Below, in pieces: positions 6,163 through 26,899 of a stretch of 32,000 bases of DNA. The notes beneath the pieces are model-generated. The model saw only the letters and a list, made by a program, of their open reading frames with translations, ran no database searches and was not told the origin of the DNA. This stretch comes from Candidatus Methanoperedens sp. (GTDB taxonomy: Archaea; Halobacteriota; Methanosarcinia; Methanosarcinales; Methanoperedenaceae), in the NCBI GenBank assembly GCA_027460535.1, contig JAPZAR010000030.1, positions 89,827 through 121,826 of the forward strand, read 5' to 3'. Every line of letters begins with the position of its first letter. Position 1 is the stretch's first letter. The position numbers and the translations under genes were made by a program.

Positions 6163-6993
6163 ATGGCTACAAAGCTAACAGAGCCCATTACTATCAGGCT
6201 ATCCGACAGAGTATCCCTCAGACTTTATCCGGATTCAAGACCCCACAACCTGGAGATTGCAAACCTCCAGAAAGGCGTTGTGCTCATGCATGATCGCAAA
6301 GAGCTGATCGGTGAGGGAGCTGGCTTCGGGGCTCCTGTCGTCAGGTATGCTGATCATACTTTTTTCTCAACATCTGCCAAGGTATATTTATATGAGCCGA
6401 ATGTGCTAATGAAGTCCTTTCTGATGGATTCGGTATCACGAAAGAGATTCGGTACCAGTGGACCGTATGTTGATCAAATTTTTTCCATTCTTCACAGGAT
6501 CTTTACGTGGTCGTATTTAAGGTTCAAATGCCGCCCCATCTTTAAGAAGATAATTGAATTCAGGAGAACGCTCGGTTTGCGCACTGAGTTCGTCAAGGTC
6601 AGGTCAAGGGGCATGGTCAATATTACCTACACTCTATCGAGCAGTATGCAGATAAAGGTCGATCTAACAGGACTGGATACCCGGGGATGCAAAGAGATCC
6701 TGATCCTGAACGAACAGGATGGGGATTTTTTCAGGAGATACTTTGACAGAGAAGAGGTTACGGACGACAGGATCGAAGCATGGAGGCAAGTGATTTCAGA
6801 AAATGCCTCCTTTTCTGATGTTAAGGGGTCACTCACGTTCGCTCTTAAAAAGATCAACGGCTCATCACTGATCTCAGGGAGGGAGCATGTGAAGCGCTGC
6901 CTCTCCTGGTCTGGCTTGAACTATTCTTTGAGGCCAGGTACTCGAGATTTCACTTACACACTTGAAATCACGGATGTTTTCAGCAAAAACTAA
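6163..6993 (+). CDS. Hypothetical protein, no recognisable domain
   Basis: 276-aa ORF divergent from rSAM paralog A, 75-bp intergenic. Ordinary composition for the window. No signal peptide, TM helix or known motif identified. Confidence 0.65.
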   Translation: MATKLTEPITIRLSDRVSLRLYPDSRPHNLEIANLQKGVVLMHDRKELIGEGAGFGAPVVRYADHTFFSTSAKVYLYEPNVLMKSFLMDSVSRKRFGTSGPYVDQIFSILHRIFTWSYLRFKCRPIFKKIIEFRRTLGLRTEFVKVRSRGMVNITYTLSSSMQIKVDLTGLDTRGCKEILILNEQDGDFFRRYFDREEVTDDRIEAWRQVISENASFSDVKGSLTFALKKINGSSLISGREHVKRCLSWSGLNYSLRPGTRDFTYTLEITDVFSKN

Positions 6994-7147
6994 TATCCCC
7001 GCAGATCAGTTCTGGCAATGAAGCAGTCGATGCCGTTCAAAAAAATGCGGTTGAAAACAGAAGTGACGAACGGGTGACCGTTTCAATTCTTGTTGGTAGT
7101 TAGGTCAATGTGTTGCACATCTGATTGATTGACGTAAAAACAACCTG

Positions 7148-7160
7148 AAATAAGGCTTAT
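7148..7160. repeat. 13-bp direct repeat AAATAAGGCTTAT (left copy) flanking the DUF4062 cassette
   Basis: Exact match to 8107-8119, read directly from the sequence. Confidence 0.85.
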
Positions 7161-7209
7161 GGATTTTTCAAAGACACACACATATATCATCCTTCGCCAT
7201 TACTGGGCT

Positions 7210-8028
7210 TTATCCTCCTACATTATCCTTTATCTTATTTTCTATATCAGCTATTAAATCTGAAAACGATCCACCACTAAGAATAATACTAACTATATTA
7301 ACATAAAAATGTAAAACTGTCTGATCTATTTTCTTCATTCTCTTCAATAATGAAATAATCATAGCTTTAATCAGACACGTTTTAACATTTACAGAATTGA
7401 AAGGCGTTTTTGTCATATCCATATCTATCCTTAAATTTTCAAGAATTTCATTTAGGAAATCTTTAGTAAGTCTACATATATCGTCTGTTACTATAATAAT
7501 TTTATTCGCAATCAACGAATCCAAGGCCAATTTCATCTCCAATTCAGTATATCTGTCTTCTTTTGATTTATTACTGGTTTTACAAACGACAATTCTTGCA
7601 ATCCACCATGACAAATCATTTTTTAACTTCGCCCTCAAGTCCATAATATCATCAAAATAACAAAGAACATGTCCTTCATCGGGATCAGAAATCGACTCTA
7701 TGAAAGATTGCAATTTCTTTTCTCTTCGGCCTAGATTAAATTTCTTAATATAAATAATTGTATCTATATTATGAGCTCTAGCTGTTTCATATTCTTCAAT
7801 GGTGGGACCACTATATTTTTTGTCAAATATTCCAACGTACAAATCAGAATTCATGACCTCATCAATATATGTTTGTCTAAGTCCTGATGATCGGGCGCCC
7901 CATTCTTCAAACATTGCAGGCTCAAATCCAAACTGATTCAAGCTTTCTTTGACAATAAGCCGTTCATCTTTTAGTTCATTTATCGTTGAACTTATAAACA
8001 CCTGAGGTTTTTTCCTTTTTTGGATCAT
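7210..8028 (-). CDS. DUF4062 (TIR-like) domain protein with an uncharacterised helical C-terminal half
   Basis: 272 aa. The N-terminus, VFISSTINELKDERLIVKESL...FEPAMFEEWGA...SDLYVGIFDKKYSGPTIEEYETA...IIYIKK, follows the DUF4062 pattern (vFiSSt..dL..eR...., mfE...a, sD.yv.i....Yg..t..Ey..A). The gene and its flanks are visibly AT-rich relative to neighbours. Confidence 0.8.
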   Translation of the reverse strand: MIQKRKKPQVFISSTINELKDERLIVKESLNQFGFEPAMFEEWGARSSGLRQTYIDEVMNSDLYVGIFDKKYSGPTIEEYETARAHNIDTIIYIKKFNLGRREKKLQSFIESISDPDEGHVLCYFDDIMDLRAKLKNDLSWWIARIVVCKTSNKSKEDRYTELEMKLALDSLIANKIIIVTDDICRLTKDFLNEILENLRIDMDMTKTPFNSVNVKTCLIKAMIISLLKRMKKIDQTVLHFYVNIVSIILSGGSFSDLIADIENKIKDNVGG

Positions 8029-8106
8029 CCTACTTTTTACCCATTCTTATTTAGTGATGCTCTCCACATTTCGTACAGAGCCCTGAGGTTTCTATGGACT
8101 ATATGT

Positions 8107-8119
8107 AAATAAGGCTTAT
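8107..8119. repeat. 13-bp direct repeat AAATAAGGCTTAT (right copy)
   Basis: Exact match to 7148-7160. Confidence 0.85.
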
Positions 8120-8284
8120 TCCAATATATCTATTTAAGGATTTGAAAAATGCGCTAATTCCCCGAAGGGCATAATAGATATATCTAGTGAAACCGGAGAA
8201 TTATTAAAAGGAAATAGAAAAATAGTGAAAACTTTATTCTAAGGTGATATCGACTTAAGTATATCAGCAATAAAGAGATGTAAC

Positions 8285-9595
8285 GTGTACGCAGAAACCG
8301 TTAGGCACAGGATTGTATCATTACTTCCGCGAGATGAATTGGCTTTACTTCTGAGCCTGATGATACAGATTCCCCTCGCCTTTTTCCTGGGTCACTTCTA
8401 TGACATAAGAATATCAATGGGGACAGGGTATCTTGTTGCCGGGGGGTTGAATCCCTATGAACAGCACTATCTTGGTGGCATTTTCAATCACGAGATATTC
8501 CAGGGAATAACCCCAGGCATAGGGTATCCTCCTCCGTGGGCTATAATCCTTGGGCTCATCTATTTGCTTTCCTATAAAATCGTCCATGACCTGTTCCTGT
8601 ATAACTTCGCGATCAAGCTCCCTATAATAGCGGCAAACATATTCCTTGCCTATGCTGTAAGAAATATGCTGCTGCACGATCTGAAGATCGATCGAATAAA
8701 AGCCAGAAGAGCGTGGCTTCTCATGCTATTTAATCCATTTATTCTGATCACCACCTCTGCCTGGGGCCAGATCGACGGGATCGTTGCTTTCCTTGTGATA
8801 TTATCGTTTCATTACCTGCATCGCAAAATGACCGGCAGGTCTGCTGTCCTGCTTGCGCTTGCTATTTCCCTGAAACCTATTGCCCTGCCCCTGCTTCCCC
8901 TTCCGATAATATACACAGCCCGTGGGTCGATGAAAAGTTGCGCAAAATATCTCATAATCTCTCTGGCATCGATTCTTGTTCTAACAGTAGTGCCGTTCTA
9001 CCTGTTAAACTGGAATCCTGGGCCTGTATTGAGAAATTGGGATGCTCACGAAACGGTTGCAGGAGGTTTATCCATCTTTGGTTTCATGGAAGCCCTGCAG
9101 GGTACATACCATATCCCTGATTCCATGTACCTGCTCGGGTTTGTATGGATACCTGCTGTAGCATTAGGCTACATCTTCCTGCATCCGCGGTTCAATTCGC
9201 CAGAGGAAATGACACGGGGCGCTTGTAGCATAATCCTGATATTCCTGCTCACTCGCGCCTGGGTTTCAGAGCCCAATCTTGACCTGCTCATACCATTCCT
9301 GGTAATTGTGATGACATTGAATAACATATCATGGAAGGTCTATACTTTCGCCTGGTCTGTACCTCTCGTTTTTGCATTCTTAAATACATCTATCCCGCAG
9401 CTCTTTGCACTGATATATCCACAGGTTATTGGAGACCTATCGGGTATTGACCATAAGATACGTGGCGTAAGGCTGATGGCAGGTTATCTTACAGTTCTGG
9501 TGTGGCAGGTCACGGGCTGGTATATCGTTATCAAATTGAACCGGCACTTATCGAGGAGCAGGTTCAATAGAATCACCTCACTTAGCGAAAGTTGA
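8285..9595 (+). CDS. Polytopic membrane glycosyltransferase, GT-C fold (DUF2029/GT87/PIG-M-like mannosyltransferase family)
   Basis: 436 aa with a GTG start and about 10-12 TM helices. A short acidic/aromatic first loop and the central segment LFNPFILITTSAWGQIDGIVAFL...LAISLKPIALPLLPL are typical of DUF2029-type GT-C enzymes. Confidence 0.7.
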   Translation: MYAETVRHRIVSLLPRDELALLLSLMIQIPLAFFLGHFYDIRISMGTGYLVAGGLNPYEQHYLGGIFNHEIFQGITPGIGYPPPWAIILGLIYLLSYKIVHDLFLYNFAIKLPIIAANIFLAYAVRNMLLHDLKIDRIKARRAWLLMLFNPFILITTSAWGQIDGIVAFLVILSFHYLHRKMTGRSAVLLALAISLKPIALPLLPLPIIYTARGSMKSCAKYLIISLASILVLTVVPFYLLNWNPGPVLRNWDAHETVAGGLSIFGFMEALQGTYHIPDSMYLLGFVWIPAVALGYIFLHPRFNSPEEMTRGACSIILIFLLTRAWVSEPNLDLLIPFLVIVMTLNNISWKVYTFAWSVPLVFAFLNTSIPQLFALIYPQVIGDLSGIDHKIRGVRLMAGYLTVLVWQVTGWYIVIKLNRHLSRSRFNRITSLSES

Positions 9596-9633: not shown

Positions 9634-10268
9634 CTGCAGCACGGGATCCTTCAGATATTTCAGCCTTGCAATACCATTAAGTATGTTTATTCGCGGGGGT
9701 GCAGGTTTCAAAAATCAAAGGGCCTGTGGCCGATTGTACTTGCCTCGCTTATCATAGCTCTTCCTTTTTATTTTAGCCTCTATTCATACCTTTACCAGCC
9801 TATGGTCAGGGCAGGAGATTGGGGCGGCAGTGTTTATGCATTCAAGGCCGACGGCTCTACGCTTTCCGGATTTCCGAAACATACCGGAGGGAAGATATTT
9901 GCTTCTGCTGCAATAGGAGATCTGAACAAAGATGGGACCAAGGAAGTGGTTGTGGGTTCATGGGACAGAAACATCGCCGGTGGCATTTCCGCAGAGAGTA
10001 CATGAAACCGCCAAAAATCAGAGAAGGCTCTCCGGTACTCAACGGAATATCCATCTCAAAGGAAAACGGCGTTCTATTCCTGGCTGCCAATTTTTCGGGA
10101 TCGATCGAGCGCCCGAACTACTATGGGGACGACGGCACCTGGCACCCATCTCCAATGGTGCTGTCACAGGGAATGTATGCTGATATGATAGCGCCGCAAA
10201 AACAGGAAATAATGAAATATTTATCAGCCTTGAGAATGATAACCATTCATACCGCTTTCCTGAGGTGA
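9634..10268 (+). pseudogene. Degraded FG-GAP/VCBS-repeat surface protein gene with multiple frame disruptions
   Basis: A membrane-anchor-like segment (GLWPIVLASLIIALPFYF) and FG-GAP-like repeats (GGSVYAFKADGSTLSGFPKHTGGKIFASAAIGDLNKDGTKEVVVGSWD) sit in one frame with no ATG before the anchor. The nearest ATG (9683) is in another frame. The frame terminates at 10005 and coding-like sequence continues in a different frame to 10268. Confidence 0.45.
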
Positions 10269-18430: not shown

Positions 18431-18961
18431 ATGCAAATACTTGTCCATATCTGCTGTGCGCCCTGCTTTACGTATCCTCACAAACGGTTGATTGAGGAAG
18501 GGCATGAGGTGACAGGTTTTTTTTATAATCCCAATATACACCCTTATTCAGAATATAGAAACAGGATGGGTTCACTTGAGAAATATGCGGAACTGAAGGG
18601 AACCCGGATAATCTACAGGGATGATTACGACCTTGAAAGCTATCTTCGCGGTGCCCTTGCGGCAGATGACAGATGCACTTTCTGCTATACCTCCCGGCTA
18701 GGTGAAGCGGCAAGAACAGCAGTCTTACTGGGATTTTCTGCTTTCACTACCACACTTTTGATATCTCCCTACCAGAAGCATGATATGCTTGTACACGCGG
18801 GAGAGAAGGCTGCGGATGAACACAGCATTGAGTTCTATTATGAAGATTTCAGGGATGGTTACAGAGAATCTCGTGAAATGGCAAAGGGACTTGAGCTTTA
18901 CATGCAAAAATACTGCGGATGTATTTTCAGTGAAAAAGAACGATATCTTAAGTTAAAATAA
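18431..18961 (+). CDS. queH: Epoxyqueuosine reductase QueH (DUF208)
   Basis: 176 aa with the HICCAPC N-terminal motif, FYNPNIHPYSEY, RCTFCY, TTTLLISPYQ and C-terminal YCGCIFS. These match the QueH family signature. Confidence 0.85.
   Translation: MQILVHICCAPCFTYPHKRLIEEGHEVTGFFYNPNIHPYSEYRNRMGSLEKYAELKGTRIIYRDDYDLESYLRGALAADDRCTFCYTSRLGEAARTAVLLGFSAFTTTLLISPYQKHDMLVHAGEKAADEHSIEFYYEDFRDGYRESREMAKGLELYMQKYCGCIFSEKERYLKLK

Positions 18962-24376: not shown

Positions 24377-26899
<2,523 letters not shown>

Follow-up and report, generated by a model that had tools for sequence, protein, structure and literature searches.

The locus considered here raises the question of what a single short gene, carrying a domain related to TIR domains and standing among housekeeping genes, does in an archaeon. 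It lies in a 32,000-nt stretch of DNA (the window), in which a complete open reading frame on the reverse strand (7210..8028) runs from an ATG start to a stop and encodes 272 amino acids. The translation contains VFISSTINELKDER, MFEEWGA, SDLYVGIFDKKYSGPTIEEYETA and LHFYVNIVSIILSGG, and both the reading frame and all quoted motifs are as an initial annotation, made from the sequence, had stated. That annotation took the host to be an archaeon, which is confirmed by the adjacent gene, 87-93% identical to genes of Candidatus Methanoperedens MAGs. Six contigs, which derive from several samples, carry the identical 272-aa protein with flanks unchanged. It was suggested to be a DUF4062 protein with an uncharacterised C-terminal half, acting either as a minimal sensor-effector or abortive-infection protein or as an orphan effector whose partner is encoded elsewhere.

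The N-terminal domain is supported as DUF4062/TIR-like by profile and fold searches, as the initial annotation had read from its sequence pattern. Pfam PF13271 matches residues 9-72 (E=1.5e-15, 57.6 bits vs a gathering cutoff of 24.7), and this model spans approximately half of the true DUF4062 domain (Osinski et al. supplement, bioRxiv 10.64898/2026.05.01.722283). TIR_2 stays below threshold (17.3 bits vs a cutoff of 28), and so does KAP_NTPase, whose match to the helical residues 118-205 scores 14.6 bits vs a cutoff of 20 and was rejected. Scanning the protein against NCBIfam gave no match, and a PDB sequence search with the family profile returned chance matches only (E ~1). A PADLOC v2 scan also gave no match, which carries little weight because the database is older than the DUF4062 discoveries. 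The AF2 model used here comes from a 49-sequence run (pLDDT 88.6, pTM 0.82); an earlier 10-sequence run was poor (pLDDT 58). The model contains five parallel strands (9-14, 36-38, 63-68, 89-95 and 120-125) and five helices, a TIR-like fold that extends from residue 9 to ∼153. The last of these helices, alpha-E, forms a long ‘stalk’ (128-153 in this monomer model). From Pfam, AF2 and Foldseek, the DUF4062 / NIR TIR-like domain was placed at residues about 8-153 (7570..8007, reverse strand).

Foldseek was run against PDB and viral libraries, and the matches account for the N-terminal domain only. On the TIR side the matches include SARM1 TIR, TIR-STING, SPARTA TIR-APAZ and Cat1, and on the NDT-fold side DNPH1, the CMP N-glycosidases MilB/BcmB and nucleoside 2-deoxyribosyltransferases. 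Since the scores for N-glycosidases and deoxyribosyltransferases approximately equal those for TIR domains, structure alone cannot fix the substrate. The protein might accordingly be a nucleotide or nucleoside N-glycosidase or deoxyribosyltransferase (CMP/hmCMP hydrolase-like or DNPH1-like) with a substrate other than NAD+, serving nucleotide metabolism, modified-base salvage, or defence via nucleotide rather than NAD+ depletion. There is a precedent for such a reading, as an Avs DUF4062 effector at first carried the annotation of CMP hydrolase (Le Mouellic et al., bioRxiv 10.64898/2026.09.04.749371). We nevertheless consider it unlikely, because the sequence match is to DUF4062 specifically and not to NDT families, and because every DUF4062 protein with detected activity depletes NAD+ (KpSwz, TEP1, PsAvs2, Vulcan, Vesta and Eva01). 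Cleavage of NAD+ to ADPR and nicotinamide has been demonstrated for KpSwz, TEP1, PsAvs2 and others. A metabolic housekeeping role is further disfavoured by the sporadic, low-GC and hotspot-located distribution of the gene described below.

The residues predicted to matter for function were located by alignment with Eva01, the Evangelion protein of the S. aureus plasmid pMW2 (WP_000072390.1, 324 aa; Ibarra-Chavez et al., bioRxiv 10.64898/2026.06.25.731849), defence by which is abolished by mutating F11, E87 or W162; its E87-Y88 pair is required according to mutational data. The alignment equates F11 with F11, E79-Y80 with E87-Y88, and W142 with W162; the codons of E79-Y80, the predicted catalytic Glu and its partner Tyr, lie at 7789..7794 on the reverse strand. 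E79 is invariant in the family of the 272-aa protein (11 proteins), reaches at least 90% conservation in a diverse set of 49 DUF4062 proteins, and corresponds to the conserved Glu of the DUF4062 / NIR domain (KpSwz E97, Eva01 E87, PsAvs2 E108 and Vulcan E98). W142 is missing from a distant member of the family (P0013), and in the 272-aa protein the Eva-type Q/W/E motif is replaced by R51-Q52-T53.

The remainder of the protein, residues 154-272 (7213..7569, reverse strand), forms a C-terminal auxiliary (AUX) module, which is presumed to be a sensor. In the model a linker is followed by a helix (162-174), a beta-hairpin (178-187) and four further helices (189-206, 212-231, 236-251 and 255-270). 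pLDDT in this block is mostly 84-95, and lower in the linker (151-160) and at the C-terminal end. The I+L+K content is 36% in the C-terminal half vs 27% in the N-terminal half. A membrane helix is usually taken at a Kyte-Doolittle mean of ∼1.6. The hydrophobic stretch LHFYVNIVSIILSGG reaches a best 19-residue mean of 1.44, and in the model it forms a helix buried within the bundle; its identity as a transmembrane segment was rejected on both counts. The initial annotation, which had described this half as helical, Ile/Leu/Lys-rich, hydrophobic in one stretch and uncharacterised, was thus accurate in each respect. No AUX matches were found in Pfam, NCBIfam, PADLOC or PDB, and an exhaustive AUX-only profile search of 1.84 billion representatives recovered relatives solely within the 11-protein family. 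Comparison with 30 other DUF4062 tails, including that of Eva01, by hhalign and hmmsearch found no relationship. Within the family, mean pairwise identity is 44% for the tail vs 73% for the core, and the tail falls below the core in 55/55 pairs. In being lineage-specific and diverging faster than the core, the AUX module behaves like a sensor.

The family consists of the 272-aa protein and 10 further full-length members (33-88% identity), all of which carry PF13271 except the 5'-truncated P0003. The nearest relative of the core, P0014, is 46% identical and has a different, Cys-rich tail, and the distant relative P0013 shows a weak TFIIE_alpha match. No relatives were found by tblastn against phage records or in a scan of viral contigs; a metagenome scan for the family gave one short contig, and tblastn against plasmids gave N-terminal matches only, at 27-30% identity.

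The contigs of most homologs are of insufficient length to show neighbours, and in the four distinct genomic contexts available no neighbour or partner gene is conserved. This bears on the suggestion that the protein is a signal-producing or partner-dependent component (ThsB-like, VstA/VstB-like or an orphan effector) whose cognate effector or regulator is encoded elsewhere in the genome. The protein is short, as such a component might be, two-gene DUF4062 systems such as Vesta exist (bioRxiv 10.64898/2026.09.04.749371), and a partner could escape notice on the short contigs. We regard this as quite improbable: besides the lack of a neighbour kept across the four contexts, no alkaline phosphatase or ThsA-like gene was found in the window, the ∼1.0-kb transferred unit contains the DUF4062 gene alone, and cyclic ADPR products are absent for the TEP1 DUF4062 domain (bioRxiv 10.64898/2026.05.01.722283). 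A two-gene module with the downstream convergent gene was likewise rejected, since these genes are unrelated between loci (276 aa here, 315 aa in L005). The alternative of an orphan effector whose partner lies elsewhere is improbable and need not be invoked.

The gene was acquired horizontally by Candidatus Methanoperedens, as a low-GC cassette among housekeeping genes. Its GC content is 0.309 and its GC3 0.260, where the flanking genes have 0.46-0.50 and 0.50-0.58, so that the impression of a ‘foreign-looking’ cassette in the initial annotation was well founded. The transferred cassette, as defined by the extent of 80.5% DNA homology with a homolog locus (L011) in blastn, is ∼1.0 kb long (7169..8184). 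It sits in a variable slot (7028..8253), at which homology with two related loci (L015 and L016) stops at ∼7027 and resumes at ∼8254. The slot has a GC content of 0.326, and the DUF4062 gene is its sole content in this genome. On one side it is flanked by a gene of 276 aa (6163-6993) without Pfam or PADLOC match, and on the other by a GT87-like glycosyltransferase gene (8285-9595), both conserved in Methanoperedens. Relatives have a conserved 34-nt motif upstream of GT87; the window lacks it, and it was discarded as a mark of the cassette ends.

At the same site the DUF4062 gene is missing in four closely related Methanoperedens genomes, and the cargo of the slot in relatives consists of a bSEFIR defence gene, TumE/HVO_A0114 and ParE toxin modules, and a PDDEXK_3 (PD-(D/E)XK) nuclease. 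The insertion site is a defence/toxin hotspot. The bSEFIR gene lies in the identical slot of a sister Methanoperedens genome (L016:7669-8436; PADLOC PDLC03957, 254.8 bits). In the window itself no recognised defence system was found, and the neighbouring genes all belong to housekeeping or to the cell envelope. The possibility, raised initially, of a conserved core-genome protein in a housekeeping neighbourhood is not borne out: the flanks are housekeeping genes, but the gene itself is missing from four close relatives at this site, which is a variable slot. Of the neighbourhoods of homologs and near-homologs, which the initial annotation had proposed to inspect for defence genes, two contain such genes or candidates. 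In addition to the bSEFIR, toxin-antitoxin and nuclease genes in the slot of relatives, a PADLOC candidate (PDC-S31) adjoins the homolog P0007, and HEPN_AbiV together with an IS200-type transposase adjoins the near-homolog P0014.

The same slot content has a less favourable interpretation, namely that the gene is a selfish toxin or of the addiction type, or is carried along neutrally by a mobile cassette, without an immune role and maybe heading to decay. Toxin-antitoxin modules occupy the slot in relatives, the family is very rare, and the L011 copy of the homolog looks frameshifted. An antitoxin partner was rejected, as the remaining ORFs of the slot are all ≤35 aa and none is a plausible antitoxin. 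Moreover, the ORF is intact and the catalytic residues are invariant across homologs at 33-88% identity, and the identical protein recurs with the same flanks in several independent samples. The difference in identity between core and tail indicates selection, not decay. For these reasons a selfish or passenger gene appears distinctly improbable.

Upstream of the gene, a non-coding region (8029..8184, reverse strand) travels with it and is conserved in L011 and L019, two loci that show no other relationship. Within it lie the TATA-like sequence TTATTTACATATA, a ∼70-nt leader and the inverted repeat ATATATCTAT / ATAGATATAT. The TATA-like TTATTTACATATA belongs to the predicted promoter of the DUF4062 gene (about 8100-8115, reverse strand). 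A structured RNA in this region was rejected (z = 0.0), and there are no Rfam matches in the window. A 13-nt exact direct repeat, ATAAGCCTTATTT, has a downstream copy at 7148..7160 and an upstream copy at 8107..8119 (both reverse strand), the latter overlapping the TATA-like box. According to the exact-repeat count these are the two exact copies in 32 kb, and at least 2 copies occurred in 0/100 shuffles. ATAAGCCTTATTT was rejected as marking the cassette ends, as it was not found beside homologs in other genomes.

The initial annotation was not aware of any characterised system built from these two parts. This is now out of date, as Swarozyc, Evangelion and Vulcan (bioRxiv 2026) are experimentally characterised, phage-triggered single-gene NADases that join DUF4062 to an auxiliary domain; the recognition of DUF4062 as an immune domain that degrades NAD+ dates from 2026. 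According to these preprints, abortive-infection defence by a single-gene DUF4062+AUX protein requires both the Glu and the AUX. Evangelion and the present gene are both single genes without a partner, located on mobile DNA and encoding an N-terminal DUF4062 core (8-153 here) followed by a short, unannotated AUX (154-272 here), and in both a conserved core is combined with a diversified AUX. They differ in that core identity to Eva01 is only 25% (BLASTP E=0.002) and the AUX is without similarity (BLASTP E>1; hhalign probability <4%), and in that an archaeal host and a chromosomal slot stand against a bacterial plasmid, and 272 aa against 324 aa. No placement in the Eva01-04 clades was obtained from this comparison, which covered Eva01.

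KpSwz, the Swarozyc protein, is a single-gene, trigger-activated NADase leading to abortive infection; its trigger is the portal protein of a tailed phage, and its AUX is an HTH/winged-helix portal-binding domain (Osinski et al., bioRxiv 10.64898/2026.05.01.722283). The 272-aa protein shares with it the order of a TIR-like DUF4062 domain of five strands and five helices, a helical stalk and a C-terminal AUX. The stalk of the KpSwz type mediates an autoinhibited dimer or oligomer, and its counterpart here may be the long helix 128-153 of a monomer model. The helix and beta-hairpin after alpha-E are reminiscent of a winged-helix element, a resemblance that does not establish the fold. As the profile search of 1.84 billion representatives placed all AUX relatives within the 11-member family, the module appears to share no sequence homology with the AUX of KpSwz.

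Vulcan, Vesta and NIR-Avs are systems with a NIR/DUF4062 effector (Le Mouellic et al., bioRxiv 10.64898/2026.09.04.749371), and resemble the present protein in having such an effector with a catalytic Glu; their logic is abortive infection by NAD+ depletion. Vulcan is a single protein, as here, but carries C-terminal HEAT repeats, whereas the tail here is of ∼120 aa and matches neither HEAT nor other repeats. Vesta is an operon of VstA (a small NIR protein) and VstB (an alkaline phosphatase), and a phosphatase is absent from all homolog contexts here. NIR-Avs combines a central STAND/P-loop NTPase with a C-terminal repeat sensor, and 272 aa is too short for a STAND NTPase. Thoeris, in which the TIR domain of a ThsB-type sensor makes a cADPR-isomer signal and a ThsA-type effector lies adjacent, is set apart by the absence of a ThsA-like or other known effector from the window and homolog loci, and by the sub-threshold TIR_2 score. 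The bSEFIR protein in the slot of the sister genome likewise comes from one gene and falls within the TIR-like superfamily; it is a defence protein that degrades NAD+, and SEFIR is listed among NAD+-degrading defence domains (bioRxiv 10.64898/2026.09.04.749371). It belongs to the SEFIR/TIR_2 family rather than to DUF4062 and is recognised by PADLOC, unlike the 272-aa protein; it is likely a functional analogue swapped in at the same site.

Taken together, the best explanation, to which we assign a probability of about 0.6, is a self-contained single-protein antiviral or anti-mobile-element sensor-effector of the DUF4062 (NIR) + AUX kind, horizontally acquired into a defence/toxin hotspot. It is probably an archaeal version of a bacterial antiviral system first described in 2026. 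The defence interpretation offered initially gains support from the DUF4062 fold, the lack of a conserved partner and the sporadic occurrence of the gene in a defence/toxin slot. By analogy with KpSwz, Eva01, Vulcan and PsAvs2, from which we infer NADase chemistry, autoinhibition, sensing of a trigger by the tail and abortive infection, the protein of an uninfected cell would be kept in an autoinhibited oligomer, held by the TIR-like domains and the alpha-E stalk helix (128-153). The fast-evolving C-terminal module (154-272) would then bind a trigger that stems from the virus or element, be it a protein or a nucleic acid, and the ensuing depletion of NAD+ would lead to arrest or death of the infected cell.

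In the three 2026 preprints (Swarozyc, Evangelion and NIR/Vulcan) archaea appear in surveys only, and the tested DUF4062 examples are bacterial or human. The single-gene DUF4062+AUX kind is already known, and what is new here is an archaeal variant whose presumed sensor module has not been seen before. The advance is thus an incremental one and no surprise, the architecture and likely mechanism having been established elsewhere. The chances seem about even that this is the first archaeal NIR/DUF4062 immune protein, with a new sensor fold for a component of Methanoperedens viruses or large extrachromosomal elements, and that the slot is a hotspot exchanging NAD+-depleting single-gene effectors (DUF4062-AUX and bSEFIR). 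A new trigger-recognition module may reside in the compact tail of ∼120 residues, and the swapping of DUF4062 and bSEFIR genes in one slot offers a concrete and testable example of an archaeal defence hotspot. If true, an archaeal single-gene form with an unrelated sensor tail would extend the immune logic of DUF4062 to Archaea, and more specifically to Candidatus Methanoperedens, an anaerobic methane oxidiser with viruses and extrachromosomal elements of which understanding is still poor.

The DUF4062 gene occupies 7210..8028 on the minus strand (ATG start, 272 aa), and its translation contains all motifs quoted in the initial annotation. The assignment proposed there is backed by a Pfam scan, in which PF13271 scores 57.6 bits over residues 9-72 (E=1.5e-15; curated cutoff 24.7). 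TIR_2 falls below the Pfam cutoff at 17.3 bits, KAP_NTPase was discarded on a sub-cutoff score (14.6 bits), and the protein has no match in PADLOC v2 or NCBIfam. The gene coincides with a sharp GC trough and is the most deviant gene of the window, because its GC (0.309) and GC3 (0.260) lie far below those of the flanking genes (0.46-0.50 and 0.50-0.58).

An AlphaFold2 model from 10 sequences was poor (pLDDT 58), and the model used is based on a 49-sequence alignment (pLDDT 88.6, pTM 0.82). Residues 9-153 form a TIR-like domain of five strands and five helices, the last helix being long (128-153). A linker leads to the tail, which consists of a helix (162-174), a beta-hairpin (178-187), and four helices (189-206, 212-231, 236-251, and 255-270). 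The modelled domain is about twice as long as its Pfam match, in agreement with the remark that the Pfam model leaves out about half of the domain (Osinski et al., 10.64898/2026.05.01.722283). The hydrophobic stretch flagged earlier corresponds to residues 239-253; a membrane span was rejected, as hydropathy is too low and the stretch is modelled as a buried helix. Foldseek matches in the PDB, all confined to the N-terminal domain, include the NADase/TIR-type proteins SARM1 TIR, TIR-STING, SPARTA TIR-APAZ, and the CRISPR-associated Cat1 NADase, and also DNPH1, CMP N-glycosidases, and nucleoside deoxyribosyltransferases. The latter group would fit an N-glycosidase acting on a different substrate, which we consider unlikely. 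Aligned with the Evangelion protein Eva01 (WP_000072390.1, S. aureus plasmid pMW2), the window protein conserves F11 (F11), E79-Y80 (Eva01 E87-Y88), and W142 (W162), but not the Q/W/E motif, which is replaced by R51-Q52-T53. Eva01 defence is lost on substitution of F11, E87, or W162, or truncation of the auxiliary C-terminal region (Ibarra-Chavez et al., 10.64898/2026.06.25.731849). E79 is invariant across the family and is one of only 12 positions at least 90% conserved across 49 diverse DUF4062 proteins.

This two-part architecture can no longer be regarded as uncharacterised, as it was in the initial annotation, since three 2026 preprints describe DUF4062 single-gene systems (10.64898/2026.05.01.722283, 10.64898/2026.06.25.731849, 10.64898/2026.09.04.749371). 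DUF4062 is a TIR-like NADase yielding ADP-ribose and nicotinamide, and the autoinhibited single-gene protein Swarozyc, in which a helical stalk and an auxiliary domain of HTH/winged type follow DUF4062, is switched on by a phage portal, leading to abortive infection that requires E97 and the auxiliary domain (Osinski et al., 10.64898/2026.05.01.722283). Evangelion systems, likewise single-gene, combine a conserved DUF4062 core with a diversified auxiliary region, and NAD+ drops upon infection (Ibarra-Chavez et al., 10.64898/2026.06.25.731849). The domain was renamed NIR in a study that found Avs-NIR, Vulcan (NIR-HEAT), and Vesta (NIR + phosphatase) to deplete NAD+, and NIR genes to be enriched near defence genes (20.0% vs 3.9% expected) (Le Mouellic et al., 10.64898/2026.09.04.749371). 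Archaeal sequences appear in the three preprints in surveys only, and none is among the tested proteins. By profile, fold, and catalytic Glu the window protein belongs to DUF4062/NIR, but it does not fall into the named sub-families Eva01, Swarozyc (by tail homology), Vulcan, Vesta, NIR-Avs, or Thoeris.

A word-indexed search recovered 10 full-length relatives (54-100% identity), and a profile search added a distant one, P0013, which is 33% identical over its full length. Beyond this set of 11 the profile score falls steeply from 346 to 147 bits, and proteins below the drop have only the N-terminal domain in common with the window protein. The C-terminal module has no Pfam match. Used alone as query in an exhaustive HMMER search over 1.84 billion representative proteins, it retrieved nothing outside the family, the hits being P0013, two fragments, and the cluster to which the window protein belongs. 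Profile-profile comparison with 30 further tails of short DUF4062 proteins, that of Eva01 among them, likewise gave no similarity. As far as these searches can detect, the presumed sensor module is confined to the family. Mean pairwise identity is 73% in the core and 44% in the tail, which is the more divergent part in 55/55 family pairs. The closest core-only relative, P0014 (L020:1120-1842, L021:702-1325; 46% identity to the core), carries in place of the family tail a Cys-rich one with four CXXCXGXG zinc-ribbon-like repeats, another uncharacterised DUF4062 tail type; its gene lies near an HEPN_AbiV gene and an IS200-type Y1 transposase. The DUF4062 core thus recurs with exchangeable tails.

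Related Methanoperedens loci lack the DUF4062 gene (0/4). Homology with them stops near 7027 and restarts near 8254, so the gene fills a 1.2-kb variable slot between a conserved 276-aa gene and a GT87-like gene, the latter 87-93% identical to genes of Candidatus Methanoperedens MAGs. In relatives the slot holds other, likewise low-GC cargo. In a sister MAG (L016) the orthologous slot carries a TumE/HVO_A0114 toxin-antitoxin pair, a PDDEXK_3 nuclease, and a 255-aa bSEFIR-type defence protein (L016:7669-8436, plus strand; Pfam TIR_2 and SEFIR) that matches positions 31-264 of 412 of PADLOC PDLC03957 with 254.8 bits. Two further loci, L015 and L014, carry ParE with a DUF7557 partner, L014 additionally a PDDEXK_3 nuclease. 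In L016 the 3' end of the 276-aa gene is duplicated over 209 nt, with the copies on either side of the TumE module (L016:6198-6407 / 7358-7566), and a 45-nt direct repeat encloses the rest of the island (L016:6452-6496 / 9919-9963). Both point to insertion events and resemble traces left by site-specific insertion at a hotspot. In the hotspot region of a third genome, a 224-aa protein (L014:118-792, plus strand) without Pfam or PADLOC match resembles, by eye, a class III nucleotidyl cyclase (…NDTGDGYLCVF…).

Family members outside the window occupy unrelated genomic places. One adjoins a DUF2971 protein matching the PADLOC candidate PDC-S31, another (P0009, locus L001) alaS and two small genes, and a further one unannotated genes. 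Downstream genes are unrelated between two of these contexts, indicating no conserved partner gene; dependence on a partner encoded elsewhere seems improbable. The small genes between P0009 and alaS (L001:1982-2643, minus strand) overlap, encode 115 and 105 aa without family match in a segment of GC 0.38 vs 0.48, and are candidates for a toxin-antitoxin-like pair.

The window and locus L011 share DNA homology (80.5%) over window 8184-7169, which spans the gene together with 156 nt on its upstream and about 40 nt on its downstream side. The mobile unit is thus a cassette of about 1.0 kb. Within the shared upstream DNA lie a TATA-like box and a leader, the latter conserved; RNA structure there is not significant. 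Upstream of the putative promoter lies a conserved inverted repeat, ATATATCTAT...ATAGATATAT (window 8125-8181, minus strand; L011:2542-2600), which may be an operator or cassette end. The gene is flanked by two exact copies of a 13-nt direct repeat, ATAAGCCTTATTT (7148-7160 and 8107-8119, minus strand; two copies in 0/100 shuffles), which is absent beside homologs in other genomes. Its upstream copy overlaps the TATA-like box, and the repeat may represent a regulatory motif or a duplicated target. The L011 homolog, P0003, is apparently frameshifted after about codon 29 (L011:2719-2806), its N-terminal 'MIQQRKKPQVFISS...' being encoded in another frame, which reflects either a pseudogene or an error in the MAG assembly. 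Such a lesion would suit a selfish or decaying passenger, a reading to which we give little credence, as the identical DUF4062 protein with identical flanks occurs on contigs of several independent samples.

The remaining window genes are housekeeping (FEN1, malate dehydrogenase, pseudouridine synthase, TGT/QueA/QueH, Ham1, aspartate kinase, tRNA-Arg) or cell-envelope genes (GT2, GT87, B12-radical SAM enzymes), and the window shows no recognised defence system. Archaeosine is the usual product in Archaea, and the bacterial-type queuosine genes of this Methanoperedens chromosome, TGT (24741-25892, minus strand; 383 aa, 460 bits), QueA (25895-26899, minus strand; 412 bits), and QueH (18431-18961, plus strand; 198 bits), therefore look like an acquired bacterial tRNA-modification pathway. 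Short overlapping ORFs between GT87 and the second radical SAM gene (9802-10268, plus strand), with a weak FG-GAP repeat match (67 aa), seem to be what is left of a decayed gene.

The defence reading of the initial annotation thus gains support from independent context evidence. With a probability of roughly 0.6, we interpret the window protein as an archaeal single-gene abortive-infection NADase built from a DUF4062 core plus an auxiliary sensor. The kind of system is already known; what is new here is the archaeal host and the novel tail. The finding extends a very recent discovery in a sensible direction and is unlikely to surprise a specialist, and the slot in Methanoperedens provides a testable archaeal hotspot.
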